From assembly GCA_046317915.1 (NCBI GenBank), contig JBKCVJ010000046.1, forward strand, positions 23,352-87,351: DNA of 64,000 nt. Reading direction: 5' to 3'. The notes beneath the pieces were generated by a model, which did no database searches, was not told the origin of the DNA, and saw nothing but the letters and a program-made list of their open reading frames with translations. Within the stretch, counting starts at the first letter, position 1; every line of letters starts with the position of its first letter. The position numbers and the translations under genes were made by a program. Of the stretch, positions 2,197 through 61,233 are shown piece after piece. This stretch comes from Sphingobacteriales bacterium. GTDB taxonomy: Bacteria; Bacteroidota; Bacteroidia; Chitinophagales; Chitinophagaceae.

Positions 2197-2254
2197 CTAA
2201 TGGCTAGTAACTATTGGCTATTGTTTGCGACCTCGCGACCTGCTACCTGCGACC
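2194..2254. repeat. Two adjacent heptamer arrays at a convergent gene junction: (TRGCTAN)x4 and (TGCGACC)x4
   Basis: tagctaa tggctag taactat tggctat (2194-2221); tgcgacc t cgcgacc tgctacc tgcgacc (2226-2254). Confidence 0.8.
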
Positions 2255-3098
2255 TAATTTGAATGATTCCGCCAATCAGCGCACAAACTCCCGAAATCAG
2301 TGTAAACAAAAAACTTGCTGAGAACGCTTTGGCGCTGTCTATCATCATCAGTCCGGATCCCGTTACCAGCACCCATTCGCGAATGCCAAGGCCGTTGATG
2401 CTGAGTGGCAGGGCAGACATCACGGATCCGCCGTAAAACAAGATGCCATAGGAGATCCATTGTTCTGCTACAATTGCAAAACCTTTCAGCAGACAAAAGA
2501 AACTCAGCAGTTGAAGACACTGTATCACCCAGGAGAATGCTGTTATTTTGAACAGTACTCCATTGAACGCTGGGAACAACTTGCGATGAAGTAAAAAGTA
2601 AACCAGCCACCCGATGATGAGCAGGATGATGATCCACCATACCTTCACAGGAACATATTCCTGCAACACATCCAGCCTTTGAATAAGCAATAACGCAGCG
2701 ATGGACAATAGTGTAGTCAGTCCATTCACGCGATCCAGCAGTGTGGCCGTAATAAGGGTTTTATAACTGGCCTCGGATCTTTTTTGCAGGTAGATCACTT
2801 TATACGCGTCCCCGCTCACGCCACCTGGCAGGAACAGTCCATAAAACATCGACTTGTAATACAATTGAAGGTTACGAACGTAGGGGATGTTTACACCAAC
2901 ACTCCTGAACAGTTGCAGCAGTCTGTAAGCGCTTAGAAATTGTGAAAGGTTATAAAGTATAAACGCAGGAATCAGCCACCACAGGCTGAATTGCTGAAGG
3001 GTTTCTTTAATGCTTTCCCAGCTGACTTTTTTGAAGACGAGGTAAAAGGCCAACGCAATGAGCCCAATCTTCAATAGCCATTTCAACAGGGACTTCAT
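2211..3098 (-). CDS. Lysylphosphatidylglycerol synthase TM-domain / UPF0104 flippase-like membrane protein
   Basis: Multi-TM protein with LFLPGGVSGDAYKV, DRVNG and PLSINGLGIRE motifs. Confidence 0.8.
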   Translation of the reverse strand: MKSLLKWLLKIGLIALAFYLVFKKVSWESIKETLQQFSLWWLIPAFILYNLSQFLSAYRLLQLFRSVGVNIPYVRNLQLYYKSMFYGLFLPGGVSGDAYKVIYLQKRSEASYKTLITATLLDRVNGLTTLLSIAALLLIQRLDVLQEYVPVKVWWIIILLIIGWLVYFLLHRKLFPAFNGVLFKITAFSWVIQCLQLLSFFCLLKGFAIVAEQWISYGILFYGGSVMSALPLSINGLGIREWVLVTGSGLMMIDSAKAFSASFLFTLISGVCALIGGIIQIRSQVAGREVANNSQ

Positions 3099-7864: not shown

Positions 7865-7867
7865 GGT

Positions 7868-8077
7868 ATGCCCATAATTGTGAATCTCGATGTCATGATG
7901 GCCAAGCGAAAGATGTCGCTCAACACCTTGTCGGAGAAAGTGGGCCTCACGTTATCAAACCTTTCTATTCTAAAGACCGGCAAAGCAAAAGCGATACGCT
8001 TCAGCACCTTAGAAACCATTTGTCAGGTGCTGGATTGCCAGCCAGGGGATATCCTTGAATACCGGGAGGAAGAATAA
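7868..8077 (+). CDS. Cro/C1 (XRE, YozG-like) HTH transcriptional regulator
   Basis: MPIIVNLDVMMAKRKM...NLSILKTGKAKAIRFSTLETICQVLDCQPGDILEY. Confidence 0.92.
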   Translation: MPIIVNLDVMMAKRKMSLNTLSEKVGLTLSNLSILKTGKAKAIRFSTLETICQVLDCQPGDILEYREEE

Positions 8078-8171
8078 AAAAAAGTTGTGACAAACTGAAT
8101 GTATCGGCGTATCACTATTATGTATAGCCGAACAGGCCATCTCGTTTCGATTAACAATTAAATATCAGCAC

Positions 8172-9789: not shown

Positions 9790-9796
9790 CGATGCA

Positions 9797-9836
9797 CATT
9801 GCCGCATTACCGCACTGCCACATTGCCAAATTGACT
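9797..9836. repeat. Octamer tandem array (MATTRYCN)x5
   Basis: cattgccg cattaccg cactgcca cattgcca aattgact. Confidence 0.85.
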
Positions 9837-9839
9837 GAG

Positions 9840-9911
9840 TGGTCCCGTCAGGAATCGAACCTGAATCCAGGGCTTCGGAGACCCTTATACTATCCATTGT
9901 ACTACGGGACC
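9840..9911 (-). tRNA. tRNA-Arg(CCG), CCA not encoded
   Basis: Reverse complement GGTCCCGTAGTACAATGGATAGTATAAGGGTCTCCGAAGCCCTGGATTCAGGTTCGATTCCTGACGGGACCA folds as a cloverleaf with TTCGATT T-loop and CTCCGAA anticodon loop. Confidence 0.95.
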
Positions 9912-9936: not shown

Positions 9937-9973
9937 CAATTAGATAATTGGACAATTTGAAAATGTGGCAATG
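9937..9973. repeat. Octamer tandem array, inverted relative to 9797-9836
   Basis: caattaga taattgga caatttga aaatgtgg caatg; abuts the MarC stop codon. Confidence 0.75.
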
Positions 9974-10552
9974 CTATTTGATCAGACCACTCAAATTTGT
10001 TGTAAAGATCTTGACGGCAATGGCCAGCAAAACTACGCCAAAAAATTTACGTACAGCCAACAAACCTCCTGTTCCTAATAAACGTGCGATGTAATTCAGG
10101 GAATGGAGCACCAGGTACACAAAAATCAGGTTGATCAGGATGGCCACCAGCACGATGGTTTCATTATAGTTGGCACGTAATGAGATCACGGTGGTCAGCG
10201 TTCCGGACCCTGCAATCAATGGGAAGGCAATCGGTACCACCGTGCCAGACGAAGGGTTGGCATCGGGCTTGAAAAACTCGATCCCCAATACCATTTCCAA
10301 GCCGAGAATAAAGATCACTATAGAGCCACCCACAGCAAAGGACCTTACGTCAAGCCCCATGATCCTCAGGAACGTCTCACCGATGAATAGGAAAACGATC
10401 ATCAGGGCCCCGGAGATCAGGGTAGCCCGAAGCTCCCGGATCCCGCCCATTTTCTGCTTTAGGCTGATGAGCAGGGGGATGGAACCAATGATGTCTATCA
10501 CCGCAAACAGGGTGAAAGTGACGGTGATGAGCTCGTCTAGCGTGAAGTTCAT
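9974..10552 (-). CDS. MarC-family integral membrane protein
   Basis: LFAVIDIIGSIP, VPIAFPLIAGSG, RKFFGVVLLAIAV; start moved to MNFTLDEL (10552), just downstream of a -7 box. Confidence 0.88.
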   Translation of the reverse strand: MNFTLDELITVTFTLFAVIDIIGSIPLLISLKQKMGGIRELRATLISGALMIVFLFIGETFLRIMGLDVRSFAVGGSIVIFILGLEMVLGIEFFKPDANPSSGTVVPIAFPLIAGSGTLTTVISLRANYNETIVLVAILINLIFVYLVLHSLNYIARLLGTGGLLAVRKFFGVVLLAIAVKIFTTNLSGLIK

Positions 10553-10556
10553 CCTG

Positions 10557-10564
10557 CAAAGATA
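10557..10564 (-). promoter_or_regulatory. Bacteroidota -7 box (TATCTTTG) for the marC-family gene
   Basis: Exact consensus 4 nt upstream of the ATG at 10552. Confidence 0.65.
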
Positions 10565-10565
10565 A

Positions 10566-10629
10566 GGTGGAAGTTGGTAGGTGGAAGGTGGAGGTACTTT
10601 CTTCCACCTTCCAACTTCCAACTTCCGCC
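10566..10629. repeat. Inverted pair of (GGTGGAA)x4 heptamer arrays forming a ~28-bp hairpin
   Basis: ggtggaa gttggta ggtggaa ggtggag - gtactttc - ttccacc ttccaac ttccaac ttccgcc. Confidence 0.85.
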
Positions 10630-10630
10630 T

Positions 10631-12586
10631 TTATAGTGTCAGGTTCGCCCCTACCAGAAAATTAAACGGTCTGGTCGTAAACCCCATCACGTCCGTATAC
10701 TTTGCATTGAAGATATTCCTGAGGTCCGCGAAGGCCCTGACCTTTTGTGAAAATCGATATTCGCCGTAAACGTCAAACACAGTATATGCATCTACCTCAA
10801 TCGGGGCTTGCATAAACCTCGGTTCAAAGCGCTTGCCGGCATAGCGGCCATGAATACTCGTAAATAATTTTTCAGTAACCTGGTAGCCAGCAGTCAGGTT
10901 CAGGCTGTGTGCCGGCCTTCGGAACTGGTAATTGTAGCTTGTGTCTCCGCTTTTAATGTAACTGAAACTCGGAGCGTCATAGCTATATTTTACCGTATTC
11001 ACTTCGCCCGTTACATAGGTGTAATTCAAAACAAGGTTCCATTTATCCTTTCGATACTGGCTCTCCAACTCAATACCTTTATCACGTGCACTGTTGTTGT
11101 TGAAATACCGAAAATCAATCAGGCTATAATCGATCCCATCCCTCAGTTTGCGCGTAAAACCTACCAGCCTGGTCACCAAAGCTTTTTCCATTGCCGCAAA
11201 TTGTACGCCTGCCTCCAGGGAATTGGATTTCTCAGGCTTCAATGTGGCCAGACCACTATTGGGATCATAGAGCTGGTAAAGGGTAGGAGCCTTGAATGCA
11301 GACGATAGGTTGGCGAATATTTTCCAATTACCCCTTACATAGGAAGGGTTAAGGGAGTAGGTGAAATTGTTTCCGTACATCGAGTGGTTGTTCCATCGTC
11401 CACCCAATTCCAGAAAAAAGCCATTGCCGGAATTTAATAACGCTGACGCATAGGCGCTGTAATGGTTGATCTTAGCGGAATCCTTCCCAATCTCGGTTTC
11501 ATAGGGTCCAAAACTGCTGATGGATAAAGAATACTGATCCGTTTGTTGCCTGCGAAGATCTGTGCCCGCGAGGAAACTGACCCGCTCATTCAGCTTGATA
11601 TTCGCATACACCTCTGCAAAATGACTGAAGCCCTTGAACCTGGATTCACCATATTGTGCAAATCCGCTCACATCCGTTGAGTCATCCAGATAGTCTCTGT
11701 CGGTATAATTCAAGTTATAGTTCCCGTGTATAACGGTCTTGCCTAACCGATATTCAAGGCCCAATCCTGCGGTATAATTTTTATTGTTCACTGTATGGTC
11801 CTTATCGTCATTATACGCATTGGCATCAAGGTCTGCTTTGTACAGATTTGCCTGGCCCATCAGCTTCCACAGAAAGCGGTCGTTGAATTTGCCATTCAGT
11901 GTTCCCAGCACATTGTGCTGCTGTAAGCCGTCTTTGTCGAAATCTCCCTTTCCTGTACTATCAAAAGCGGCTGAAAGGCCCGTGGTGCGCAGATACTGGT
12001 ACTGCAGACCATAACCAAGGTTCTCCTTGCTTCCCCTTATCCCTACCCCTGCTTTCGCGGTTCCAAAGGACCCCGCTGCGACGTTGGCATTTAAAGAAAC
12101 TGGTTTGCCAGCAGGTTTGCGCGTGATGATGTTGATCACGCCGGCTATAGCGTCAGAACCATAAATGGTGGATTGTCCGCCCTTCAGTACTTCCACCCTT
12201 TCTACCATATCTGCCGTGATGAAGTTCAGGTCAAAGGCCGAAGAGATGGAAGAAACATCGTACACCGGTGTGCCATTGATCAGGATCAGCGTATTGCCGA
12301 GACCCGCACCGCGGGTATACACATCGAGGTTAGTACCCGGGTTGTTGTTGGCGCCGATCACGGTGAAACCCGCATACTGATTGAGAATCTCGCCCATGTT
12401 GCGGCCACTGTTTTTCTCCAGCACCTGCCTGCTGATCACAGTAAGTACCTTGCCGGTCTGGTTTTGTTTTTGTTCTATTCTGTTGGCAGTTACCACTACT
12501 TCGTCCAGGATACTGCTGTCTTTAGATTGTGCTGTCGCCCTTATGCTGCAGATAATCATCGCAGTGATGATGAAATTTTTTTTCAT
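10631..12586 (-). CDS. btuB: TonB-dependent receptor, vitamin B12 transporter (BtuB-like)
   Basis: TonB box LDEVVVTA, plug VERVEVLKGGQSTIYGSDAIAGVINI, C-terminal barrel; directly downstream of a cobalamin riboswitch; start moved to MKKNFII (12586). Confidence 0.85.
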   Translation of the reverse strand: MKKNFIITAMIICSIRATAQSKDSSILDEVVVTANRIEQKQNQTGKVLTVISRQVLEKNSGRNMGEILNQYAGFTVIGANNNPGTNLDVYTRGAGLGNTLILINGTPVYDVSSISSAFDLNFITADMVERVEVLKGGQSTIYGSDAIAGVINIITRKPAGKPVSLNANVAAGSFGTAKAGVGIRGSKENLGYGLQYQYLRTTGLSAAFDSTGKGDFDKDGLQQHNVLGTLNGKFNDRFLWKLMGQANLYKADLDANAYNDDKDHTVNNKNYTAGLGLEYRLGKTVIHGNYNLNYTDRDYLDDSTDVSGFAQYGESRFKGFSHFAEVYANIKLNERVSFLAGTDLRRQQTDQYSLSISSFGPYETEIGKDSAKINHYSAYASALLNSGNGFFLELGGRWNNHSMYGNNFTYSLNPSYVRGNWKIFANLSSAFKAPTLYQLYDPNSGLATLKPEKSNSLEAGVQFAAMEKALVTRLVGFTRKLRDGIDYSLIDFRYFNNNSARDKGIELESQYRKDKWNLVLNYTYVTGEVNTVKYSYDAPSFSYIKSGDTSYNYQFRRPAHSLNLTAGYQVTEKLFTSIHGRYAGKRFEPRFMQAPIEVDAYTVFDVYGEYRFSQKVRAFADLRNIFNAKYTDVMGFTTRPFNFLVGANLTL

Positions 12587-12697
12587 ATCAATAAATAGGG
12601 GACTTGGGAGCAGAGAAAGAAAACCAGGGTTCTTCCGCGGAAAAGAATAGGTTGACCAACTCCGGCTTTTCACCCGAAAGCCCAGGTTAATAAATCA

Positions 12698-12872
12698 CGA
12701 AGGCAGGTCTTCTGGCTTGTTTCTCTGCACCTTCCCGGCCCCAAGGAACCAGTGGTTTTTTTACAAAGGCGCTTGAATTCATAGCGCCTGAAACTTACAG
12801 CTACGGGGATAGCGCCGGACTTTCACCGGCTTCCCTTTTCATCCTCCGTTGTTGGCGGAGGAACCATTCGCA
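12698..12872 (-). promoter_or_regulatory. Cobalamin (AdoCbl) riboswitch
   Basis: Reverse strand has AAAAGGGAAGCCGGTGAAAGTCCGGCGCTATCCCCGTAGCTGTAA...CCACTG...GGGAAGG...AAGCCAGAAGACCTGCC, matching the B12-element core and B12 box. Confidence 0.93.
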
Positions 12873-12970
12873 GGGCAAAGTTGTGTGGAATGCATCAGAT
12901 CGCAAAATCCGATTCTATTCAACGTGAATAAAAAGTTGATACTAAAAATTCAATTATCTTAAGGGCGCTT

Positions 12971-14320: not shown

Positions 14321-15480
14321 TGGACATTTCCTATATCCTCAATGAACTGGGGGAGGATCGTGAAAATTATTTCAATGCCATCGCTCCGCCGATCATCCAG
14401 ACCAGCAACTTCGCCTTCGATACTGTTGACGAACTGCGCAAGGCATTTGAAGACGAGATGGGCGGCTATCTCTACAGCAGAGGACTGAACCCAACGGTGG
14501 AGATCCTGCGTTTAAAACTCGCGGCACTGGACGGCGCGGAAGATTGCCTGGTCTTTAACAATGGTGCTGCGGCTACCTATGCTGCCGTGATGGCCAATGT
14601 GAAATCAGGAGATCATATTGTATCTGTAGAGCATCCTTACAGCTGGACGAAACACCTCTTTGATAAGATACTGCCCAGGTTTGGCATCACTACTTCGTAT
14701 GTGGATGGCCGTTATATCGAAAATTTTGAAAGAGCCATCTTACCCAACACCACCCTGATCTATCTGGAGAGTCCTACTTCATGGTATTTTGAATTGCAGG
14801 ACTTGAAAGCAGTTGCAGATCTTGCAAGGTCAGAGGGCATTGTGACCTTGATCGACAATAGTTATTGTACGCCGCTTTATCAGCGGCCGATTGAATTGGG
14901 GATCGATATTGCCATGCAGACGGCCACCAAATATATTGGCGGGCACAGTGATACCCTCGGTGGTGTGTTATGCGGCTCGGCCGAGATGATGCGTAAAATC
15001 TTTCTGAGTGAATACCTATGCATTGGCAGCGGCATCCAGCCCTTCAACGCCTGGTTGTTATTGCGCGGGCTTCGCACCTTGCCTGCCAGGCTGGAAAGGA
15101 TCAACAGAAGTACGCAGAAGTTTTTTGCCTACCTGAAAGATCATCCTTTGGTGGAGGAACTGATCTATCCCTTTGACCCTTCCTTTTCCCAATACGCCCT
15201 TGCCAGGCAGCAAATGACCGAAGCACCAGGGTTGATCTCGTTCTATGTGAACATGGAAACCGCCGATCAAATTGAGACCTTCTGCAACAGCCTGAAAGTC
15301 TTCAAAATGGCTGTAAGCTGGGGCGGACATGAAAGCCTGATCATCCCAAAATTGTCTTCCATGCCCCGGGATTTATTTGACCCCACCGTGAAGGACCACC
15401 GGATGATCCGCATCTATGTGGGTCTGGAAGAGCCGGATTACCTTATTAAAGGCCTTCAGCAAGCCTTTAATAGCTATTAG
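14320..15480 (+). CDS. PLP-dependent trans-sulfuration enzyme (cystathionine gamma-synthase/beta-lyase/methionine gamma-lyase family)
   Basis: PIIQTSNF, YSRGLNPT, YLESPT, IDNSY, TATKYIGGHSD (PLP Lys), SWGGHESL. Confidence 0.9.
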   Translation: MDISYILNELGEDRENYFNAIAPPIIQTSNFAFDTVDELRKAFEDEMGGYLYSRGLNPTVEILRLKLAALDGAEDCLVFNNGAAATYAAVMANVKSGDHIVSVEHPYSWTKHLFDKILPRFGITTSYVDGRYIENFERAILPNTTLIYLESPTSWYFELQDLKAVADLARSEGIVTLIDNSYCTPLYQRPIELGIDIAMQTATKYIGGHSDTLGGVLCGSAEMMRKIFLSEYLCIGSGIQPFNAWLLLRGLRTLPARLERINRSTQKFFAYLKDHPLVEELIYPFDPSFSQYALARQQMTEAPGLISFYVNMETADQIETFCNSLKVFKMAVSWGGHESLIIPKLSSMPRDLFDPTVKDHRMIRIYVGLEEPDYLIKGLQQAFNSY

Positions 15481-15498
15481 CTACTAGCTAATAGCTAT
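15471..15498. repeat. (TAGCTAN)x4 heptamer array containing the stop codon of the upstream gene
   Basis: tagctat tagctac tagctaa tagctat. Confidence 0.85.
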
Positions 15499-15601
15499 TT
15501 AGGCGGCAAGAATCCGTTATCAATGATTTTGCCGTTGTCAATTTTGGTTGAATCTTTGCGGATATCTGGGTAACGGTGGTTGCACAGGATAAATGATTTA
15601 C

Positions 15602-18463: not shown

Positions 18464-18540
18464 TATTGGTTATTCGTTATTAGTTATTGGTTAATTTGAA
18501 GCCGTTTTAACCACCCATAACTATTAACGAATAACCAATA
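18464..18540. repeat. Inverted pair of (TATTVGT)n heptamer arrays, ~31-bp stem
   Basis: tattggttattcgttattagttattggttaa ... ttaaccacccataactattaacgaataaccaata. Confidence 0.8.
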
Positions 18541-18547
18541 ACTTTTT

Positions 18548-24309: not shown

Positions 24310-25074
24310 ATGGCTGAGGCAAACAAGTCAGTGAAAAAGATTCTGATTACCCAACCCCGTCCCGAGTCTGATAAGTCGCCCTATTTCGAGCTGGCTAAGC
24401 GGTATGCCGTGGAGATGGAATTCTTCCCTTTCATCCGGCTTGAGCCCATCCCCTGCAAAGAATTCAGGAAGCAGAAAATAGAGATCGCCGAGTATTCATC
24501 GGTGATTTTCACCAGCCGCAATGCTATAGACCATTTCTTCCGTATCTGCGAAGAAATGAAGCTGAACATTTCGCAGGACACTAAATATTTCTGCATCACC
24601 GAAGCGGTGGCGCTTTACCTGCAGAAGTTCATCCTATACAGAAAACGAAAGGTTTTTTATGGTGCCGATGGTACCAACAAGAGCCTGTTTGACGTGATGA
24701 ACAAGCACAAGGAAAACGAGAAGTTTCTCTATCCCTGTTCCGAAAACCAGCAGGACAATGAGATCGTGAACTGGCTGAAGAACAATAAATGTGAATTCCA
24801 GACGCCATTCATGTACCGTACCATCAGCAATGATGCCAGCAAGCTGGAAGCGCACAATTTTGACGTGATCTGTTTCTTTACGCCCAGTGGTGTAAGGAGC
24901 CTTTTTGATAATTTCCCCGCCTATACCCAGAACGGAACCTTCATCGGAGCCTTCGGCAGCAATACCTCCAAAGCCATACAGGAAGCGGGTTTACAGCTGC
25001 ACATCAAAGCCCCCGAACCGCAAGTGCCATCTATGATTGCGGCATTGGAGAAGTTCCTGGCAACGAAAAAGTAA
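24310..25074 (+). CDS. hemD: Uroporphyrinogen-III synthase-like protein (HemD family)
   Basis: KILITQP, VIFTSRNAIDHFF, YRTISND, FFTPSGVRS; function assigned from fold only. Confidence 0.75.
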   Translation: MAEANKSVKKILITQPRPESDKSPYFELAKRYAVEMEFFPFIRLEPIPCKEFRKQKIEIAEYSSVIFTSRNAIDHFFRICEEMKLNISQDTKYFCITEAVALYLQKFILYRKRKVFYGADGTNKSLFDVMNKHKENEKFLYPCSENQQDNEIVNWLKNNKCEFQTPFMYRTISNDASKLEAHNFDVICFFTPSGVRSLFDNFPAYTQNGTFIGAFGSNTSKAIQEAGLQLHIKAPEPQVPSMIAALEKFLATKK

Positions 25075-25171
25075 AAAATTAAAAAGTAAAAATTAAAAAG
25101 CTATTGCAAAGAACTATACCTGGAACAACCTGTTAAGGTTTTTTACTTTTTACTTTTGAATTTTTACTTTT
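25066..25171. repeat. Inverted pair of (AAAAAGT)n/(TTTTTAC)n heptamer arrays with ~38-nt spacer
   Basis: aaaaagt aaaaaatt aaaaagt aaaaatt aaaaagc ... tttttac tttttac ttttgaa tttttac tttt; spans from the hemD stop to the next ATG. Confidence 0.75.
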
Positions 25172-31207: not shown

Positions 31208-32248
31208 ATGAAATTCCAATTGGCAAAATATGTTTTACTAGTGACTGCGTTCGGTCTCGCTACGCAGGTGGTTGATGCGCAAACGCGTAAGAAAACCACC
31301 AGGTCCAAGACCAGCACGTCCAAGAAAACATCGACCAAGAACACTCAATCCAATACGGCCAATGCCAATTTGAATGCAAAGGCTGCCGATACAGTAGTTC
31401 CCGTTGCTAAGCTCGATCCTCTGGCTATTGATACGCCCAAAAAATCCCTCCGCAATGACGCGGCAGTGGAAAGGAACCTCGTGAAAGACAGGACTCCTCT
31501 CGCGCATGAGAACATCCGCGAAGACGATGCCTGGTACCGCGAGCGCGTATGGAGGGAGATCGATATCCGCGAAAAAATGAACCTTCCTTTCCGTTATAAG
31601 GCAGATGAGGATAATGGTAACCAACGTTTCATTATCATTCTGCTGAATGCACTCCGCTCTGGTGAAGTGACGGCCTTCGATCCCACCGTGGACGATCGTT
31701 TCACTACACCGATGACACTGGAGAAGATCGGTGAAATGATCGCTGGAAAATGCGATACCACCCAGATCCCGGATTTCGTAAAAGATCCTAACGGTACCAA
31801 AGGTATTTTCAAAGACACGATGGTATGTGCCGTGTTCAATCCTGATGATATCACTAAATTCAGGATTAAGGAAGAATGGGTATTTGATAAGGAAAGTTCC
31901 AGGATGTATGCACGTATTCTGGGTATTGCCCCGATTAAAACCTATGTTGATCAAAGTACTGGAGCTATACTCGGTGAATCTCCCATATTCTGGGTATACT
32001 ACCCTGATCTCAGGCCTACTCTTGCTAAGTACGAAGTGTACAATGGTAAGAACTTCGGTGCCCGGATGAGCTGGGAAGAGCTTTTCGAAAGCCGCTATTT
32101 CAGCAGCTATATCGTAAAGTCTACCATTGAAAATCCTTACGACATGTACATCAAGCAGTATATTAAGGATGATATCCTGAAGTTGCTGGAAGGTGAGAAC
32201 ATTAAAGAAAGGATCTTCAACTTTGAACAAGACCTGTGGTCATACTAG
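31208..32248 (+). CDS. gldN: T9SS/gliding protein GldN (PorN)
   Basis: RVWREIDIREKMNLPF, IKEEWVFDK, RILGIAP, FNFEQDLWSY. Confidence 0.95.
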   Translation: MKFQLAKYVLLVTAFGLATQVVDAQTRKKTTRSKTSTSKKTSTKNTQSNTANANLNAKAADTVVPVAKLDPLAIDTPKKSLRNDAAVERNLVKDRTPLAHENIREDDAWYRERVWREIDIREKMNLPFRYKADEDNGNQRFIIILLNALRSGEVTAFDPTVDDRFTTPMTLEKIGEMIAGKCDTTQIPDFVKDPNGTKGIFKDTMVCAVFNPDDITKFRIKEEWVFDKESSRMYARILGIAPIKTYVDQSTGAILGESPIFWVYYPDLRPTLAKYEVYNGKNFGARMSWEELFESRYFSSYIVKSTIENPYDMYIKQYIKDDILKLLEGENIKERIFNFEQDLWSY

Positions 32249-32317
32249 ACTAAATAGCATAAAAAAAGCCCCCGCTTCCAGCGGGGGCTTTTTTTATGCT
32301 ATTTAGTCTAGTATGAC
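32239..32317. terminator. Bidirectional intrinsic terminator embedded in a perfect 37-bp inverted repeat
   Basis: Core A7-GCCCCCGC-TTCCA-GCGGGGGC-T7 (32261-32295); perfect complementarity continues outward to 32239/32317. Confidence 0.92.
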
Positions 32318-32354
32318 AATTTGCCAATTAGTCAATGCGGTAATGCGGCAATTG
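32315..32354. repeat. Octamer array x5 (reverse orientation) upstream of the four-helix-bundle gene
   Basis: gacaattt gccaatta gtcaatgc ggtaatgc ggcaattg. Confidence 0.8.
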
Positions 32355-42573: not shown

Positions 42574-42951
42574 ATGCCTCTGTTTGTAAGAACTATATCA
42601 CTCATTACCGTATTCCTGGTTGTCAGTTCTTTTGACTTCACTGTGGATGAGATTTTCGGTGCCATCCGCAGGGGTGATGCCGTTAAAATATCCCGTCATT
42701 TTGATAACCTTGTGGAGATCACTGTGGCGGAGAAAAGCTGCTCTTACAGCAAAACCCAGGCTGAACTGGTGTTGCGGGATTTCTTCACTACACATTCCGT
42801 CCGCAATTTTATCATGCACCACAAAACCAACAGCAATAATGCTGATTATTATGTTGGAAAACTCAGTACCTCAAAAGGAGAGTTCCGCACTACCGTACTG
42901 GTAAAAACCCGAGGCGAGAAACGGGTGGTGCAAGAACTTAGGTTTGAATAG
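42574..42951 (+). CDS. DUF4783-family protein
   Basis: Signal-like N-terminus; YSKTQAELVLRDFF motif; gpmI/nadC context. Confidence 0.75.
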   Translation: MPLFVRTISLITVFLVVSSFDFTVDEIFGAIRRGDAVKISRHFDNLVEITVAEKSCSYSKTQAELVLRDFFTTHSVRNFIMHHKTNSNNADYYVGKLSTSKGEFRTTVLVKTRGEKRVVQELRFE

Positions 42952-42976
42952 CTATAAGCTAGTAGCTATTAGCTAT
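42949..42976. repeat. (TAGCTAT)x4 heptamer array beginning at the stop codon
   Basis: tagctat aagctag tagctat tagctat. Confidence 0.8.
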
Positions 42977-42984
42977 TTTTGGTC

Positions 42985-43842
42985 ATGCTTTCATTTGACC
43001 AGGCACTTGAACAACTTGTTGCTGCAGCCATCATAGAAGATGTTGGCGACGGCGATCACTCCACGCTTAGTACCATCGCTCCTGATGCAAGGGGCAAAGC
43101 CATTTTAAAAATAAAGGATGAAGGTATTCTCGCAGGCGTAGCCGTAGCGGAGAAAATTTTTCATATGCTGGAGCCTGGCTCCGTGCTGCACATCTATCGA
43201 AAGGATGGTGATGTGATGGTTAAGGGCGATATCGCTTTTGAGGTGTCCGCATCTATACATACCATCTTGAAAGGGGAACGCCTTGTCCTGAATATTATGC
43301 AGCGTATGAGTGGCATTGCCACGCTGACGCGGCAGTATACGGACAAGTTGAAAGGATATCACACCCGCGTATTGGACACACGAAAAACCACACCCAATTT
43401 CCGATTGCTGGAAAAAGAAGCTGTACGTATCGGGGGAGGTATCAACCATCGTTTTGGACTGTATAATATGATCATGCTTAAAGACAACCATATTGATTAT
43501 TGCGGCGGTTTGACGAAAGCGATCAACCTTGCGCATGAGTATGTACAAGAAGTGAAGCCCGGATTGAAAATAGAAGTAGAGACCAGATCTTTAGACGATG
43601 TGGCTACAGTTGTGCAGATGGGGAAAGGCAAGGTGTTTCGGATCATGCTGGATAATTTTACACCGGAGAAAATAAGTGAAGCCTTACAGCTGATCAATGG
43701 ACAGTTTGAAACCGAAGCCAGTGGCGGCATCAATCTCGAAAATATTGAAGCCTATGCTGCAACCGGAGTGGACTATGTTTCTGTTGGGGCACTGATTCAC
43801 CAGGCAAGAAGCCTGGACCTGAGCCTGAAAGCTCAGGTCTAA
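42985..43842 (+). CDS. nadC: Nicotinate-nucleotide diphosphorylase (carboxylating), quinolinate phosphoribosyltransferase
   Basis: ERLVLNIMQRMSGIAT, DTRKTTP, HRFGL, IMLDN, EASGG. Confidence 0.96.
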   Translation: MLSFDQALEQLVAAAIIEDVGDGDHSTLSTIAPDARGKAILKIKDEGILAGVAVAEKIFHMLEPGSVLHIYRKDGDVMVKGDIAFEVSASIHTILKGERLVLNIMQRMSGIATLTRQYTDKLKGYHTRVLDTRKTTPNFRLLEKEAVRIGGGINHRFGLYNMIMLKDNHIDYCGGLTKAINLAHEYVQEVKPGLKIEVETRSLDDVATVVQMGKGKVFRIMLDNFTPEKISEALQLINGQFETEASGGINLENIEAYAATGVDYVSVGALIHQARSLDLSLKAQV

Positions 43843-43876
43843 TGCGTCAATTTGATAATGCGGCAATGCGGTAATT
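43838..43876. repeat. Octamer array x5 (reverse orientation) filling the nadC-SUI1 gap
   Basis: tctaatgc gtcaattt gataatgc ggcaatgc ggtaatt, followed directly by ATG. Confidence 0.8.
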
Positions 43877-44212
43877 ATGAGCAAGAAGAATAAAGCAGAC
43901 AAAAGCGGATTCGTGTTTAGCACAGATCCTACTTTTCAGTTTGAACATGAAGCACAGGAAGAGCAGGAGACCCTGCCTCCGGAGAAACAGAAACTCCGGA
44001 TCATGCTGGATAAAAAGCAACGTGCCGGTAAGGCAGTGACACTCGTCACGGGGTTTGTTGGAAAGCCTGATGATCTGGAAGAACTCGGTAAAAAAGCCAA
44101 GCAATTTTGCGGTACCGGTGGGTCTGTGAAAGATGGTGAGATCATTATCCAAGGAGATCAGCGGGAGAAGGTGCGGCAGTTTCTGATCAAGATGAAATAT
44201 ACACTGCTCTAG
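43877..44212 (+). CDS. Translation initiation factor SUI1/YciH family
   Basis: RAGKAVTLVTGF, CGTGGSVKDGEIIIQGD. Confidence 0.92.
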   Translation: MSKKNKADKSGFVFSTDPTFQFEHEAQEEQETLPPEKQKLRIMLDKKQRAGKAVTLVTGFVGKPDDLEELGKKAKQFCGTGGSVKDGEIIIQGDQREKVRQFLIKMKYTLL

Positions 44213-44329
44213 CAATTGACAATTGGCAATTGACAATTAACAATTGGCACTAGTCTTTGGATATCTAAAGATTAGTCTCTAATTACCAGTGCCAATTGCT
44301 AATTATTAATTGCCAATTGTCAATTGCTA
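44210..44329. repeat. REP/MITE-like element: 45-bp inverted arms of six heptamers (TRRCAAT x5, TGGCACT) plus RGT; 30-nt spacer
   Basis: Arms 44210-44254 and 44285-44329, 41/45 complementary; lies between convergent SUI1 and icd. Confidence 0.88.
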
Positions 44330-44332
44330 ACC

Positions 44333-45784
44333 CTATTGTCCTTGCGCCAGTGAATACGCTTTCTTATCTCCCCACATGTTCAACAATTCAGTGGAACAGA
44401 TTTTGAAATCTGCAGATACCCGCGTACATAATTCAATAATGTCTCTTTGGGTCAGCGGCGCATCGCCCACACTTTCAAAACGGCAGCGATATTGATTCAC
44501 GAGGTTTGTAAAAATGGATCCCTTCGGCCACACCTGTGTTCCCCTGTTACTTATGGTGACCAGTTTAAACAGGTCAAGGGTATGTTTCAGGCATTTTTCG
44601 GCCACTTCAGTGGGTTGTTCAGCACTTTCAATAAAAAGGTCAACCCCAACGATGGTCTCTTCTTCCATCTCCTTGCTCATGATCAGTGGATTCTTTTCCA
44701 GTTTGAACACGGTAGGCGTGATCGGCTTATTAGCAAGCATGGGTTTGGCACCATGTTCGGGCAACTTTCCAAAGTTGGCAATGATGGCGTTGGCGAATTC
44801 AGTGGTATTCAGCGCCGGCTTGGATTTGTCGCCAAAGTCGCCGGTCCTGTATCCCTGTTCCAGGGTATAGAGCAATGCATTTTCGATGATGGCTGCATTT
44901 TCCATGAGACCAAGGTGGCGGAGCATCGCTAGTCCACTCAATAGAAGGGCCGTGGGGTTTGCGATGTTTTTTCCAGTGATGTCAGGTGCGGTACCATGTA
45001 CAGCTTCAAAAATGCAGATATGATCGCCGATATTAGCCGATGGAGCAAAACCAAGTCCTCCCACGAGACCGGCACAGAGATCGGAAACGATGTCTCCCTG
45101 CAGGTTTGTCAGCACCACCACATCAAACAGATCCGGACGGGTAACCATTTTCATACAGAGGTCATCCACGATGATGTCATCGGCCTTAATATCTGGATAT
45201 TCTTTGGCTACTTCATAAAAGCATTCCAGGAACAGGCCGTCCGTGATCTTCATGATATTGGCCTTGTGTCCACAGGTGATACGGCGGGTGCCTTTCTTGC
45301 TGGCCATCTCAAACGCGTACTTGATCACTTGCAAGCTTCCGGGACGTGTAATGAACCTGCGGCTAAGGGCCACATCGTGTGTGAGCATATGCTCGATGCC
45401 ACCATAAGTATCTTCGATATTTTCCCGTACAACCGTGATGTCAATAGGGATACCGGCTTTGCTGAAAACCGTGTCCACACCGTGAAGCGTCTGGAATACC
45501 CGCTTGTTGGCGTAGGTGTTCCAGGTTTTGCGGGCGGTCACGTTTACGCTTTTTACACCTTTACCTTTTGGGGTTTCCATTGGGCCTTTAAAGAGTATGC
45601 CCAGGGTTTCAATGGTTTGCTGTGCTTCCGGCGTCATTCCATTGGAAAAGCCTTTGTCGAACACCCATTTCCCCATGTCAACGTATTCATATTCAAGGTT
45701 TACATGGTTGGCTTTGAAGATGCCTAAAACGGCTTCCATAATTTCCGGTCCTATTCCGTCGCCTTTGGCTACAGCAATTTTCAT
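44333..45784 (-). CDS. icd: Isocitrate dehydrogenase with C-terminal extension
   Basis: GDGIGPEI, VVRENIEDTY, HKANIMKITDG, NLQGDIVSD, EAVHGTAPDI. Confidence 0.9.
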   Translation of the reverse strand: MKIAVAKGDGIGPEIMEAVLGIFKANHVNLEYEYVDMGKWVFDKGFSNGMTPEAQQTIETLGILFKGPMETPKGKGVKSVNVTARKTWNTYANKRVFQTLHGVDTVFSKAGIPIDITVVRENIEDTYGGIEHMLTHDVALSRRFITRPGSLQVIKYAFEMASKKGTRRITCGHKANIMKITDGLFLECFYEVAKEYPDIKADDIIVDDLCMKMVTRPDLFDVVVLTNLQGDIVSDLCAGLVGGLGFAPSANIGDHICIFEAVHGTAPDITGKNIANPTALLLSGLAMLRHLGLMENAAIIENALLYTLEQGYRTGDFGDKSKPALNTTEFANAIIANFGKLPEHGAKPMLANKPITPTVFKLEKNPLIMSKEMEEETIVGVDLFIESAEQPTEVAEKCLKHTLDLFKLVTISNRGTQVWPKGSIFTNLVNQYRCRFESVGDAPLTQRDIIELCTRVSADFKICSTELLNMWGDKKAYSLAQGQ

Positions 45785-46390: not shown

Positions 46391-47482
46391 ATGGCCTACA
46401 AAGTAAGTTTTAACAACAGCAACCGTGTATTTTTCAACACTTTAAAGACGGCTGTTGACGAGTATTTCGAGAAAAATAATCTCCGGAAAACAGGCAACTA
46501 TAAGCTTTACGTAAAAACCACCACGTTGATCGTTTCAACGCTGGCGATTTACCTAAGTGTATTGTTTCTTCCCATGCCCGGGTGGGTGGCCATCTTGCTG
46601 AGTGCCGGTTTCGGCCTGTGCATGGCTTTCATTGGTTTCAATGTTATGCATGACGCCAACCACGGCAGTTTTTCCTCACGGAAATGGGTCAACGAAGTTT
46701 TTGGGTTGACGCTCAATTTCATTGGCGGTAATGCTTTTTTGTGGAAGCTGAAGCATAACATCGTTCACCACACCTATACCAATATTGACGGGGTGGATGA
46801 TGACATCAACAATATGCCGTTTATGCGCGAAGCGCCTACACAACCCTGGAAGCCCATGCACCGTTACCAGGGGTACTACATGTTCATGTTATACGGATTC
46901 ACTTCGCTGTTCATGTGGATCTCAGACTTTATCAAATATTTTTCGAAGAAAGTATACACCACGGAATTGAAGCCGATGGATGTGAAGGAGCATATGATCT
47001 TCTGGATCACCAAGGCCGCTTATGTGGTATTGTATGTGGTGATTCCGATCCTGGTTCTCGGTTGGAAGCCCTGGCTGATCGGATTTGCTGTGATGCATTT
47101 TGTACTCGGTCTCACCATCGCCATTGTGTTCCAGTTGGCACACGTAGTGGAGCATGCGGAGTTTTCTGTTGCGGGCGTGGAGCCTGTCAAAATTGAGAAC
47201 GAGTGGGCCATCCACCAGATCAAGACAACCGCCAATTTCGCGGCTGGGAATAAGCTCGTTACCTGGTGCCTTGGTGGATTGAATTTCCAGATTGAACACC
47301 ATCTTTTCCCGAGGGTCAGCCATATTCACTATCCGGCTATCAGCAAAATTGTGAAAGATACCTGCGAGCAATTTAAGCTCAGATATAACTACTTTCCAAC
47401 CATGGGAGAAGCTGTGTATTCCCACTTTAAGATCATGGATCAACTTGGAAGAAATAACCAAGAACTAGCAATTAACAATTAG
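46391..47482 (+). CDS. Membrane acyl-CoA/fatty acid desaturase
   Basis: His boxes MHDANHGS, HNIVHHTYTN, QIEHHLFP. Confidence 0.92.
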   Translation: MAYKVSFNNSNRVFFNTLKTAVDEYFEKNNLRKTGNYKLYVKTTTLIVSTLAIYLSVLFLPMPGWVAILLSAGFGLCMAFIGFNVMHDANHGSFSSRKWVNEVFGLTLNFIGGNAFLWKLKHNIVHHTYTNIDGVDDDINNMPFMREAPTQPWKPMHRYQGYYMFMLYGFTSLFMWISDFIKYFSKKVYTTELKPMDVKEHMIFWITKAAYVVLYVVIPILVLGWKPWLIGFAVMHFVLGLTIAIVFQLAHVVEHAEFSVAGVEPVKIENEWAIHQIKTTANFAAGNKLVTWCLGGLNFQIEHHLFPRVSHIHYPAISKIVKDTCEQFKLRYNYFPTMGEAVYSHFKIMDQLGRNNQELAINN

Positions 47483-47597
47483 CAATTAACAATTGGCAAT
47501 TGGCACTGGTTTTTGGAAGGTAGATTTTGGTGAGCGTCACTAACTTCCAACAACCAGTGCTAATTGCTAACTGTTAATTGCTAATTGTCAATTGTTA
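47466..47597. repeat. Second REP/MITE-like element with 45-bp heptamer arms; 42-nt spacer
   Basis: Arms 47466-47510 and 47553-47597 with the same (TRRCAAT)5-TRGCACT-GGT layout; lies between convergent desaturase and gldB. Confidence 0.88.
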
Positions 47598-50418: not shown

Positions 50419-50455
50419 GAACAATTACAATTGGCAATTGACAATTAGCAATTAG
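50419..50455. repeat. Solo (TRRCAAT)n heptamer array
   Basis: gaacaat tacaat tggcaat tgacaat tagcaat tag; same unit as the 45-bp arms, with no partner arm. Confidence 0.75.
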
Positions 50456-54264: not shown

Positions 54265-54265
54265 G

Positions 54266-54305
54266 CATTGCCGCATTACCGCATTGCCAAATTGTCTAAT
54301 TTCCA
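54266..54305. repeat. Octamer array x5 filling the batA-rsgA gap
   Basis: cattgccg cattaccg cattgcca aattgtct aatttcca. Confidence 0.85.
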
Positions 54306-58845: not shown

Positions 58846-61215
58846 ATGAAAGGTTTGTTTTTTCTGGGTATAACAGTGATGCTTGCGCTTTGCAGCAAAG
58901 CGCAGGATCCTTCTGTTTGGCAACATCGGTTCTGGCCAGCTAAATGGGTGACGCATCCGGATGCAGGATCCAACGCTTTCGGCGTATATCATTTCAGGAA
59001 GGATCTGAATCTGGAAGCAAAGCCATTGGCATTCCTCATTCATCTTTCTGCGGATAACCTTTACCTTTTGCAGGTGAATGGGCAGCGCGTGGCTATGGGT
59101 CCGGCTAGAAGTGACCCCGCCAACTGGAACTATGAGACGGTTGATCTCGCTCCCTTCCTTCAGCTTGGCAAAAATATCATTACAGCAACGGTTTGGAATT
59201 TCGCTGATTTCCGTGCTTACGCGCAAACGAGCTATGAAACCGGATTCATTGTACAGGGTAATGGTGCGAAGGAAGCAGTGGTCAACACACCGGGCGATTG
59301 GAAAGTGGTTGTGAATGAGGCGTATCAGCCTTTGCCGATTGACAGGGCGAGCCTGCAAACCTACGTGGCAGTAGCATCAGGAGAGAAAGTGGACGGCGCA
59401 AGGTACGCGTGGGGATATGATGCTGCAGATGTATCTGGTCTTCCATGGAAGCCAGTCAGAACGCTTTGGTATCCTGCCAAGCCAAGGTCATATGGTACCG
59501 ATGGAAACTGGCAACTGGTACCAAGATCCATCCCGATGATGGAAGACCAGCTACAGGAATTTTCCATAGAACGATCCGGCTATTTGCTGGCTGCCAAAGG
59601 TAAGGAAACCGTGAAGGGGAGCTTCCCATGGACTTTTGCGGCCAACACCAAATACAGTCTTTTACTTGATCAGGGTACATTGACCAATGCCTATGTCCAA
59701 CTCCTGACTTCAGGCGGCGCCGGGGCTAAGGTCACGTTTACCTATGCTGAAGCCATGATCAATAACAAGCGGGAAAAAGGGAACAGAAACGAGATCACTG
59801 GAAAGCACCTCATCGGAATCAGCGACCAGTATACTTCTGATGGCGGCGCAAATCGGTTGTATAGCCCACTGCATTATCGCACCTTCCGATATGTAAGAGT
59901 GGATATCGAAACCGGCAGTGAATCGCTGGTCATCAATGAACTCAACAGCAGGTTCACCGGATATCCTTTTGAAGAAAAAGGAAAATTCATCACTGAGGAC
60001 AAAGGCTTGCAGCGCATTTGGGAAACGGGTTGGAGAACCGCACGTCTCTGCGCGATGGACACTTATATGGACTGTCCTTACTACGAACAGTTGCAATATG
60101 TGGGCGATACCCGTATACAGGCAATGATCTCTTTATATGTGGCGGGAGACGACAGGCTCATGAAGAAAGCCATTAGTGACATCGCCCATTCATTTATTGC
60201 AGATGGATTAACGCAGAGCAGATATCCTTCTCGTGATCTGCAGGTGATCCCTACTTTCTCGCTTTGGTGGGTCTGCATGATTCATGATTTATACATGCAT
60301 CGCAAAGACGATGCATTCATCCGGGAACAGCTGAACGGCGTTGAAAATGTGCTCCGGTGGTACGAAGAGAAAATGGCATCCAATGGAATACTGGGATCGC
60401 TCAGCTGGTGGCAGTTTGTGGATTGGAGCTGGCCCTGGGTTGACAGCATCCGTGTAGGAGGAGTTCCACCAGGCGTAAGCAAAGGCGGGTCAGCCATTGT
60501 AAGTTTACAGTATGCGTATACGTTAGTAAGGGCCGCTGAACTGATGACGACTTATGGAAGGGCGGACATGGCTAAAAAATACAAGGACAGGGCCGCAAGG
60601 ATCTGCACGGATGTTTACCGCTTATGCTGGGATGAAACCAAGGGAATGTTTGCAGATACACCGGAGAAAAAGGAATTCAGCCAACATGTGAACATTCTTG
60701 CGATCCTTACAGATGCTATCCCCGTAACCAGGCAACAAGCGCTTTTGAAAAAGATCATGACGGATACCGCTATCACACAGGCAACCTACTATTTCCGGTT
60801 TTATATGTTTGAATCGATGAAAAAGACGGGGCTTGGGAACGAATACCTTGCTGAACTAAAGCCATGGTATGATATGCTAGACATCGGCCTAACTACTTTT
60901 GCCGAGAACCCGGAACCCACAAGAAGTGATTGTCATGCATGGAGCGCTTCACCCTTGTATGAAATGCTGTCTCTTGTTGCCGGTGTGATGCCGGCATCAC
61001 CGGGATTTAATACCGTCTACATTAAACCACATCCAGGCACATTGAAAAGCTTTGATGCAGTGGTACCTCACCCCGGCGGTGAAATCAAAGTGACCCTCAG
61101 GAATAACCAATGGGAACTGTCATTACCCAAGGGCGTTACAGGAATCTTTGAATGGCAGGGAAAAAAGTATCCGCTGGCAGGTGATAAATGGCAGTTAGTA
61201 GCTAATAGCTATTAG
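58846..61215 (+). CDS. Alpha-L-rhamnosidase-like glycoside hydrolase (GH78)
   Basis: Signal peptide; DTYMDCPYYEQLQYVGD, ENPEPTRSDCHAWS (alpha/alpha)6 motifs. Confidence 0.85.
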   Translation: MKGLFFLGITVMLALCSKAQDPSVWQHRFWPAKWVTHPDAGSNAFGVYHFRKDLNLEAKPLAFLIHLSADNLYLLQVNGQRVAMGPARSDPANWNYETVDLAPFLQLGKNIITATVWNFADFRAYAQTSYETGFIVQGNGAKEAVVNTPGDWKVVVNEAYQPLPIDRASLQTYVAVASGEKVDGARYAWGYDAADVSGLPWKPVRTLWYPAKPRSYGTDGNWQLVPRSIPMMEDQLQEFSIERSGYLLAAKGKETVKGSFPWTFAANTKYSLLLDQGTLTNAYVQLLTSGGAGAKVTFTYAEAMINNKREKGNRNEITGKHLIGISDQYTSDGGANRLYSPLHYRTFRYVRVDIETGSESLVINELNSRFTGYPFEEKGKFITEDKGLQRIWETGWRTARLCAMDTYMDCPYYEQLQYVGDTRIQAMISLYVAGDDRLMKKAISDIAHSFIADGLTQSRYPSRDLQVIPTFSLWWVCMIHDLYMHRKDDAFIREQLNGVENVLRWYEEKMASNGILGSLSWWQFVDWSWPWVDSIRVGGVPPGVSKGGSAIVSLQYAYTLVRAAELMTTYGRADMAKKYKDRAARICTDVYRLCWDETKGMFADTPEKKEFSQHVNILAILTDAIPVTRQQALLKKIMTDTAITQATYYFRFYMFESMKKTGLGNEYLAELKPWYDMLDIGLTTFAENPEPTRSDCHAWSASPLYEMLSLVAGVMPASPGFNTVYIKPHPGTLKSFDAVVPHPGGEIKVTLRNNQWELSLPKGVTGIFEWQGKKYPLAGDKWQLVANSY

Positions 61216-61233
61216 CAACTAGCCAATAGCTTT
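61199..61233. repeat. (TAGCTAN)x5 heptamer array at a convergent junction
   Basis: tagctaa tagctat tagcaac tagccaa tagcttt. Confidence 0.8.

Follow-up and report, generated by a model that had tools for sequence, protein, structure and literature searches.

A dispersed heptad palindrome at the 3' ends of convergent genes in a freshwater Chitinophagaceae lineage

This report concerns a 64,000-nucleotide (nt) stretch of contig JBKCVJ010000046.1 from a Sphingobacteriales bacterium of the family Chitinophagaceae (assembly GCA_046317915.1; hereafter the window) and, within it, a 120-nt palindrome at positions 44210-44329 that separates the convergent genes for a SUI1/YciH-type translation factor and an NAD(P)-isocitrate dehydrogenase (IDH). 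The palindrome is one copy of a dispersed family whose arms are each built of five tandem 7-nt units (heptads) and which lies at the stop codons of the genes that run into it. We favour, with a probability of roughly 0.6, the view that this family is a repeat akin to the REPINs (doublets of repetitive extragenic palindromic, or REP, sequences), maintained in a sequence-specific manner and acting as a shared 3'-end module of convergent genes.

Anatomy and dispersal of the family

As read from the sequence, the element is made of 45 + 30 + 45 nt. The left arm (44210-44254) is TAGCAAT TGACAAT TGGCAAT TGACAAT TAACAAT TGGCACT AGT, that is, five TRRCAAT heptads (RR = AG, GA, GG, GA and AA) and then the inner end TGGCACT AGT; the right arm (44285-44329) opens with ACCAGTGCC and goes on with five AATTGYY heptads. 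Set against the reverse complement of the left arm, the right arm shows four differences (G/A, C/T, A/G and A/G, all transitions), which leaves 41/45 positions complementary. An inverted-repeat search extended the pairing to 52 + 52 nt at 87%, and Tandem Repeats Finder (TRF) reported the arms as arrays of period 7/14 at 44210-44246 and 44290-44330. The central spacer (44255-44284, 30 nt) begins with an 8-nt local inverted duplication, CTTTGGAT, after which comes a 22-nt family centre, ATCTAAAGATTAGTCTCTAATT, which by eye lies three transitions away from the modal centre ATCTAAAGACTAGTCTTTAGTT. Since the duplication precedes the family centre, the spacer has two mini-hairpins, CTTTGG/CTAAAG with one G.U pair and ATTAG/CTAAT with perfect pairing; both appear at the tip of the minimum-energy fold of the single-stranded DNA (ssDNA).

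The SUI1 gene (43877-44212, + strand; Pfam PF01253, E=2e-20) ends at a TAG (44210-44212) that is the first triplet of the left arm and the TRR of its outermost heptad (stop offset 0). The IDH gene (44333-45784, - strand; Pfam PF00180, E=4.6e-90, and PF18324) ends at a minus-strand TAG at 44333-44335, 3 nt outside the right arm (stop offset -6). Because the SUI1 stop lies inside the left arm and the IDH stop 3 nt past the right arm, the element constitutes the entire spacer between the two genes. An independent JGI contig (L105) and Logan contigs from several runs carry the same element, which is therefore not an assembly artefact. Variant letters in metagenomes (at 44300, 44305, 44306, 44313 and 44314) are all transitions and either fall at YY or revert to the AATTG consensus. 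An antisense open reading frame (ORF) of 129 amino acids (aa) at 43847-44236 (- strand), which begins within the left arm and exceeds the true SUI1 gene in length, is spurious.

The motif CAATTGNCAATTG, with at most one mismatch, occurs 11 times in the window (0.59 expected). A paralogous full copy, site B (47466-47597; arms 47466-47510 and 47553-47597, centre 42 nt), sits between a convergent fatty-acid desaturase gene and gldB (Pfam assignments), and a half copy (50422-50455, + strand) occupies a 51-nt spacer between the tandem nadE and a moxR-like gene (also Pfam) as one array of about 4-5 CAATTRR heptads that has neither core nor partner. Scanning of metagenome contigs with the pattern CAATTGGCACTRGT-N(8-38)-ACYAGTGCCAATTG returned 25 loci; merged across samples and taken together with the window and L003, a contig from a relative, they gave 17 distinct flank contexts that share this anatomy, every one of them extragenic or reaching into no more than the final codons of a gene. 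Second copies overlooked by the exact pattern were found on contigs L082 (at 9193) and L091 (at 755), and their inner ends are again of the GGCAC type. In four DNA metagenomes, the arms have 10-40 times the contig depth of the unique flanks, and dozens of metagenome contigs with differing loose ends match the arms; assemblies break at these repeats. The source lineage is a freshwater Chitinophagaceae one, as seen from the IDH relatives (metagenome-assembled genomes of Chitinophagaceae), the gld gliding genes and the recovery of the sequence from many freshwater metagenomes. In a Chitinophagaceae survey of 81 sequences and 987 kb (the window and L001-L080), true CAATTRR arrays are limited to the window and L001-L003, whose IDH proteins are 93-98% identical to that of the window; a looser pattern also matches other AT-rich heptads at five further loci.

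An earlier note on this DNA had described a palindrome with heptamer-built 45-nt arms, four transition differences, the SUI1 TAG at the arm start and two spacer hairpins, a description borne out by the sequence and by the ssDNA fold. It had read the element as a mobile-type dispersed repeat (REP, REPIN or MITE, the miniature inverted-repeat transposable element) and not as a one-off terminator, and had held that only two copies genome-wide would favour a simple bidirectional terminator; the 17 contexts of the contig scan and the excess arm depth agree with the former. Its proposal that the inner ends are conserved also holds, GGCACTRGT...ACYAGTGCC being kept in the copies located by their arms alone (site B, L082 9193 and L091 755). 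That these ends form a recognition core and that the element is mobilised in trans are conjectures.

Sequence constraint, gene ends and folding

The general plan of the family is YYRR-(CAATT-RR)x5-GGCACTRGT, a CTAG-centred loop and the mirror image. Essentially all copies have five heptads plus TGGCACTRGT in each arm, the exceptions being the deletion variants L001 and L086. The modal element measures 110 nt, and the SUI1-IDH copy 120 nt; centres span 8-49 nt, and the lengths of the GGCAC...GTGCC core are discrete (26, 33, 40, 48, 54, 60 and 67 nt, with 40 as the mode). The modal centre has the consensus nnYTARAnnCTAGnnTYTARnn, and the CTTTGGAT loop insert is common to the SUI1-site copies in L105, L002 and L092. 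Constant positions deviate in 21/850 cases (about 97% conserved), point changes of all kinds amounting to about 3%. The RR/YY positions vary freely, almost solely by transition (165/170).

Mutation bias was rejected as the source of this transition-only variation, given that the 4-fold degenerate sites of IDH show a ratio of transitions to transversions of about 1:1. Selection for a stop codon in each heptad was likewise rejected as the origin of the purine rule, since TGG heptads are not depleted (15% versus about 17% expected under independence). The purine/pyrimidine rule could instead come from protein recognition, from the isostery of purine-pyrimidine pairs in a helix or from the shuffling of four ancestral heptad variants. 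The tetranucleotide CTAG is about 7-fold under-represented in the window (34 occurrences where base composition predicts about 247) and is nonetheless a fixed feature of the elements, at their ends, in the ACTAGT inner ends and at the modal loop centre. Restriction avoidance was tried as a reason for the clustering of CAATTG (an MfeI-type site) and rejected, the site not being depleted outside the elements (14 observed, 17.6 expected).

Comparison of orthologous loci indicates how long the copies have persisted. Both window sites carry the element in L002, where IDH is 98% identical in aa and 90% in nt and 34% of the 4-fold sites differ, and in L003, where IDH is 93% identical in aa and 80% in nt and the 4-fold sites are saturated. 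In these relatives the orthologous copies keep their arms, inner ends and site-specific loop traits; loop lengths and heptad order differ. The marker heptad TAATAAT, for instance, comes fourth in the window and third in L002, and the total stays at five. Decay is seen in L001 (98% aa), which retains only a 24-28 nt remnant consistent with deletion between CAATTG repeats of the two arms, and in L086, in which three heptads of one arm are lost. Copies are not ephemeral, because orthologues persist across species with saturated synonymous sites. On these comparisons the copies are vertically inherited and strongly maintained, with occasional decay, and are not recent neutral insertions.

Beyond this range, IDH is followed in more distant relatives by heptad arrays of other kinds or by canonical terminators with a hairpin and a T-run. 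In L005 (a 92%-identical relative), the IDH 3' spacer at 1824-2020 has a different long palindrome, with arms of period about 14 (CCGGTTAGTATGCTTG...) that enclose a canonical GC hairpin plus T-run terminator. In L092 (11943-12060), SUI1 is followed by the same element with the CTTTGGAT insert and the right neighbour is not IDH; the synteny break, exactly at the element, suggests that the repeats act as rearrangement junctions. Contigs L083 and L087 represent the same locus in two populations, with identical left flank and left arm and diverged right arm and right flank, and are a mosaic whose junction lies within the element.

The family is placed exactly between convergent stops. Long ORFs converge on the element from both sides in 13/17 contexts, and all 30/30 incoming ORFs (of at least 60 codons) end at offsets of -17 to +14 nt relative to the outermost TRR. 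Half of them (15/30) stop exactly on a TRR: nine, SUI1 included, in heptad 1, three in heptad 2 and three, the desaturase included, in heptad 3. The element thus supplies the stop codon of about half of its flanking genes. At site B the desaturase gene takes its stop from heptad 3 (TAG, 47480-47482, offset +14), so the last residues, LAINN, are encoded by the element; heptad-encoded desaturase tails (LAINN* or LSNN*) were found in four genomes, those of the window, L105, L002 and L003. Such tails and the spurious antisense ORFs that the repeats create are traps for annotators. As 7 cannot be divided by 3, consecutive TRR triplets run through the three frames, whichever face of the palindrome is read, and the outer heptads, which read TRR toward each incoming gene, accordingly offer TAA, TAG or TGA in every frame. 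A comparable habit has been described for REPs between convergent genes (conv-REPs), which lie <20 bp from both ORF ends and whose termini donate TAG stops (PMC3733652).

The potential for folding is strong. The SUI1-IDH element is predicted to fold at -62.8 kcal/mol as RNA of the + strand (z=-11.5), at -69.6 as RNA of the - strand (z=-12.2) and at -38.3 as ssDNA (z=-11.9), and in none of the three cases did any shuffled sequence fold as well (0/200). For all 17 copies, both strands considered, energies range from -39 to -77 kcal/mol (median about -58). Against Rfam 15, the element gave only sub-threshold matches to models of eukaryotic miRNA precursors, these being long hairpins of a generic kind. 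A consensus scan of 44210-44330 and 47466-47597 found no canonical terminator after SUI1, IDH, the desaturase gene or gldB. The genome uses canonical terminators elsewhere, and their absence at these four flanking genes supports a terminator or insulator role for the hairpin. One example, at 32240-32316 after gldN, is a bidirectional terminator in the form of a perfect palindrome with a 37-bp stem; its centre is A7-GCCCCCGC-TTCC-GCGGGGGC-T7, and it is extended by unrelated, perfectly mirrored flanks (TCATACTAGACTAAATAGCAT...). The source genome, as this case shows, habitually has long perfect palindromes at 3' ends.

Explanations for the family

The favoured interpretation has several parts. 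Because they share unique sequence, as REP doublets do, the copies must have arisen from one another by copying, and their conservation shows that sequence-specific constraint or homogenisation keeps them. Either transcript entering the element would fold into a hairpin of about 45-50 bp. By analogy with E. coli, where REPs act as terminator-stabilisers (bioRxiv 10.64898/2026.03.23.713779), this hairpin most probably terminates or insulates transcription, shields the 3' end and blocks 3' exonucleases. Strict sequence conservation, the lack of covariation and genus-specific families together are the hallmark of a protein that recognises the element, in the simplest case the enzyme copying it. 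The leading candidate for the copying agent is a HuH transposase of the Bacteroidetes type, TnpA-Y1 subclass 2.6, that is, group 5 of the REP-associated tyrosine transposases (RAYTs).

A number of results weigh against this interpretation. The two arms match at the variable RR/YY positions in 81/170 cases (48%, the random expectation), and no covariation was found in an 11-copy alignment with 89.7% of cells paired (score 0.126 versus a shuffle mean of 0.151; 494/500 shuffles scored at least as high); as the arms show no covariation, selection on base pairing in individual copies is not demonstrated. There is no T-run after the hairpin and no A-tract/T-tract pair (the flanks are CTAACCCTATTG and GCTCTAG), and the hairpin is not a canonical intrinsic terminator. 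In eight metatranscriptomes, contigs end at 44339/44347 for IDH and at 47491 for the desaturase, at a coverage (2-4x, contigs only) too thin to place 3' ends. As to mobility, none of 17 copies is flanked by a direct repeat that could be a target-site duplication, and the GTAG/CGTC tag is absent from them, the elements ending in YYRR (CTAG, CTAA, TTAG, CTGG, CCAA and others). No RAYT/HuH or other transposase was found by Pfam among the 57 ORFs of the window, which is weak evidence as it covers 64 kb of this genome, nor was a HuH+Y motif found in 1.15 Mb of sequence by regular expressions, a search of low power. No excision or empty-site variants were seen in the contigs, the L001 locus resembling a deletion remnant and not an empty site. 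Of the REP/MITE-like reading given in the earlier note, the dispersed, conserved and polymorphic family stands (polymorphism being seen in the collapsed remnant of L001 and in L086, short of three heptads of one arm), and mobilisation in trans by a RAYT is conjectural; several hallmarks of REPs are absent. An integron attC site and a CRISPR array were dropped as identities, the neighbours being convergent housekeeping genes with no integrase and no spacers, and no transposase gene adjoins any copy examined.

The best of the alternatives, which we nevertheless regard as improbable, is a purely selfish REPIN or MITE, copied by a trans-acting, RAYT-like HuH transposase and surviving where it does no harm, between convergent stops, with the help of its three-frame stops and with no function for the host. 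Sequence-specific conservation without covariation, in a family specific to a lineage, is the signature of a copying enzyme's recognition and not of RNA structure; decay variants exist (L001, L086 and single arms), and Bacteroidetes possess their own RAYT subclass with atypical repeats. However, orthologous copies remain about 97% conserved at constant positions across a divergence that saturates 4-fold sites, flanking genes rely on the elements for their stop codons, and the failure to find a RAYT or any insertion/excision polymorphism in the material described above counts against a selfish repeat as well.

More doubtful still is an array for a protein that binds duplex DNA, in which mirrored CAATT-RR sites phased by 7 bp, together with the central palindrome, would bind a dimeric or oligomeric protein (nucleoid-associated, a topoisomerase or similar) where transcription converges, the hairpin potential being a by-product of symmetry. 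The constraint does act on CAATT identity and on purine/pyrimidine class, not on Watson-Crick complementarity, transversions are excluded though the neutral ratio is about 1:1, and the heptad number is fixed. REP elements and the bacterial interspersed mosaic elements (BIMEs) that contain them are binding sites for gyrase and IHF, which lends this proposal some background. Yet no candidate protein was identified, the transition-only pattern could equally arise from shuffling of four ancestral heptad variants, and both the close tie to stop codons and the rules of sense-strand orientation favour RNA or translation over duplex DNA.

Finally, a local, non-dispersed bidirectional terminator that arose in situ, as a heptanucleotide microsatellite grown by replication slippage and made palindromic by template switching, would suit the rank of heptanucleotide repeats, commonest among the long simple repeats of prokaryotes (Mrazek 2007, as summarised in PMC4679880), the period-7 arrays of many unrelated units in Chitinophagaceae spacers, the shift of heptad order between the window and L002 and the 8-nt loop insert, which resembles a template-switch event, but it is very improbable and already contradicted by the same unique inner ends and loop consensus at 17 unrelated loci, by a heptad number that is fixed and not variable by slippage, and by a depth that makes the repeat multi-copy.

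Heptad arrays in Chitinophagaceae and known systems

A point absent from the earlier note is that, family-wide, Chitinophagaceae 3' ends carry heptad arrays with many kinds of unit. In the 987-kb survey, TRF returned 162 rows of period 7 and 66 of period 14 versus 28 of period 6; 122/177 merged period-7 arrays are intergenic, though 84% of the DNA is coding, and the unit sequences differ between genera. Arrays occur in 23.7% of convergent, 11.4% of tandem and 6.1% of divergent spacers; of the 135 non-coding arrays measuring 21 nt or more, 36% lie within 160 nt of an inverted partner, versus 4% in the control. Read in the sense of the gene, the arrays contain 7.6% C and 26.9% G versus 19.3% and 19.6% in array-free 3' flanks. 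Among 43 arrays that start past a stop codon, stops in all three frames are present in 22/43 on the sense strand and in 12/43 on the antisense strand, and no stop at all is found in 2/43 and 15/43, respectively (p=0.0007 for the latter pair). Behind the C-poor sense strand and the preference for stops in sense could lie back-up stops, a need to avoid Rho loading in sense or to create it in antisense, or founder effects.

The family of the SUI1-IDH element belongs to a class of C-poor heptad arrays found at gene 3' ends across Chitinophagaceae. A broader proposal, which we put forward as speculative, is that heptad arrays and palindromes are more than a selfish repeat and form a lineage-wide punctuation system for Chitinophagaceae 3' ends: sense stops would catch ribosomes in any frame, C-rich, G-poor RNA on the other side or the paired hairpin would stop the convergent polymerase, and each genus would keep its own unit via a dedicated sequence-specific factor.

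Other heptad families are present in the window, with the units AAGGTGG, TTATTGG, AAAAAGT and TAGCTAT; they lie at 10557-10632, 18464-18542 and 25066-25171, as single arrays at 15471-15499, 42949-42977 and 61199-61231 and as a hairpin at 2192-2225. Several of the non-CAATT families are mirrored pairs that fill the spacers of tandem genes; in the TTATTGG pair both arms show the variants in mirrored order, which the CAATT family does not. A TGCGACC array (2226-2255) lies inside the last ~15 codons of an LPG-synthase-like ORF (2211-3098, - strand) and beyond its Pfam domain match (residues 7-276 of 295), the protein tail being apparently encoded by the array. Period-8 arrays of the GCATTGCC/AATGCGGC type are found in spacers at 9795-9833, 32333-32352, 43840-43875 and 54265-54285. 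The first of them and an inverted partner near 9950-9975 flank a tRNA gene (9840-9911, - strand), and the array at 43834-43867 shows an excess depth of about 3-4x in DNA metagenomes and is for this reason also considered a dispersed repeat. Rfam at gathering scores found only a cobalamin riboswitch and a tRNA in the whole window; the riboswitch (12685-12884, - strand, 104.6 bits) is upstream of a TonB-dependent receptor gene (10631-12673, - strand). An apparent 307-nt spacer at 7865-8171, beside a DUF2975 gene, is in fact a small ORF for a Cro/C1-like helix-turn-helix protein of about 70 aa, under the ORF length cut-off used and read by eye.

REP-like repeats are well studied in Proteobacteria and hardly at all in Bacteroidota. 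The design of the present family is unusually legible, with a fixed heptad number, variable positions restricted to purines, three-frame stops on both faces and exact convergent placement. If the 3'-end function is true, it would be a case of a repeat becoming the punctuation mark shared by two genes and would give a handle on termination in a poorly charted phylum; if a cognate HuH enzyme is found, the REPIN-RAYT partnership would be extended to a new structural type. We found no published description of mirrored, stop-linked heptad palindromes, the Chitinophagaceae literature included. The family can be compared with four known systems.

The cyanobacterial short tandemly repeated repetitive (STRR) sequences and TAACTGA heptamer arrays (MacGregor 2015, PMC4679880; Mrazek 2007 as cited there) resemble it in their tandem 7-nt units, their strongly intergenic location and units that differ between lineages. 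Heptanucleotide repeats are abundant in cyanobacteria and a few Bacteroidetes, and the function of the STRR/TAACTGA-type arrays, also present in some Bacteroidetes, is unknown (PMC4679880). Those arrays are direct, variable in copy number and, in Beggiatoaceae, mostly upstream of start codons (PMC4679880), whereas the heptad family keeps to five units per arm, reflected about a unique core, at stop codons. Bidirectional intrinsic terminators, like the heptad element, serve both convergent genes with one symmetric hairpin that fills the whole spacer; the element differs in having no A-tract/T-tract pair, in its AT-rich stem of about 45 bp and in the conservation of sequence, beyond structure alone, across unrelated loci.

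The closest likeness is to the REPINs, or REP doublets, of Proteobacteria (Bertels & Rainey 2011, PMC3116915) and to the GTAG/CGTC REPs (Di Nocera 2013, PMC3733652). Like these, the heptad family is extragenic and multi-copy, has inverted conserved ends around a less conserved spacer that give a hairpin of ~100 nt, prefers convergent and tandem 3' ends at <20 bp from both ORFs, can donate a TAG stop from its termini, leaves single-arm remnants and is specific to a lineage. Unlike them, it is AT-rich and without the GTAG/CGTC foot, its arms are five tandem 7-nt units where those of REPs are a GC-rich palindrome of 20-40 bp, the compensatory inter-arm changes common in REPINs were not found, and neither was, within 64 kb of the genome, a counterpart of their cognate RAYT. 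Within the same phylum, genes of TnpA-Y1 subclass 2.6 (RAYT group 5) in Bacteroidetes have atypical, GTAG-less structures on their flanks, of which further copies lie elsewhere in the genome (Quentin 2018, PMC6006769); these repeats have GCTAG/GCTGG feet, and the Belliella example is a 122-nt palindrome (PMC6006769). The right ends of the heptad family, AATTGCTAG/AATTGCTGG, resemble such feet, although none of the repeats listed for subclass 2.6 is built of heptads (PMC6006769), and an association between the two is hypothetical, a lead and not a result. We class the element as one that works like a REPIN and not as a member of the REPIN family.

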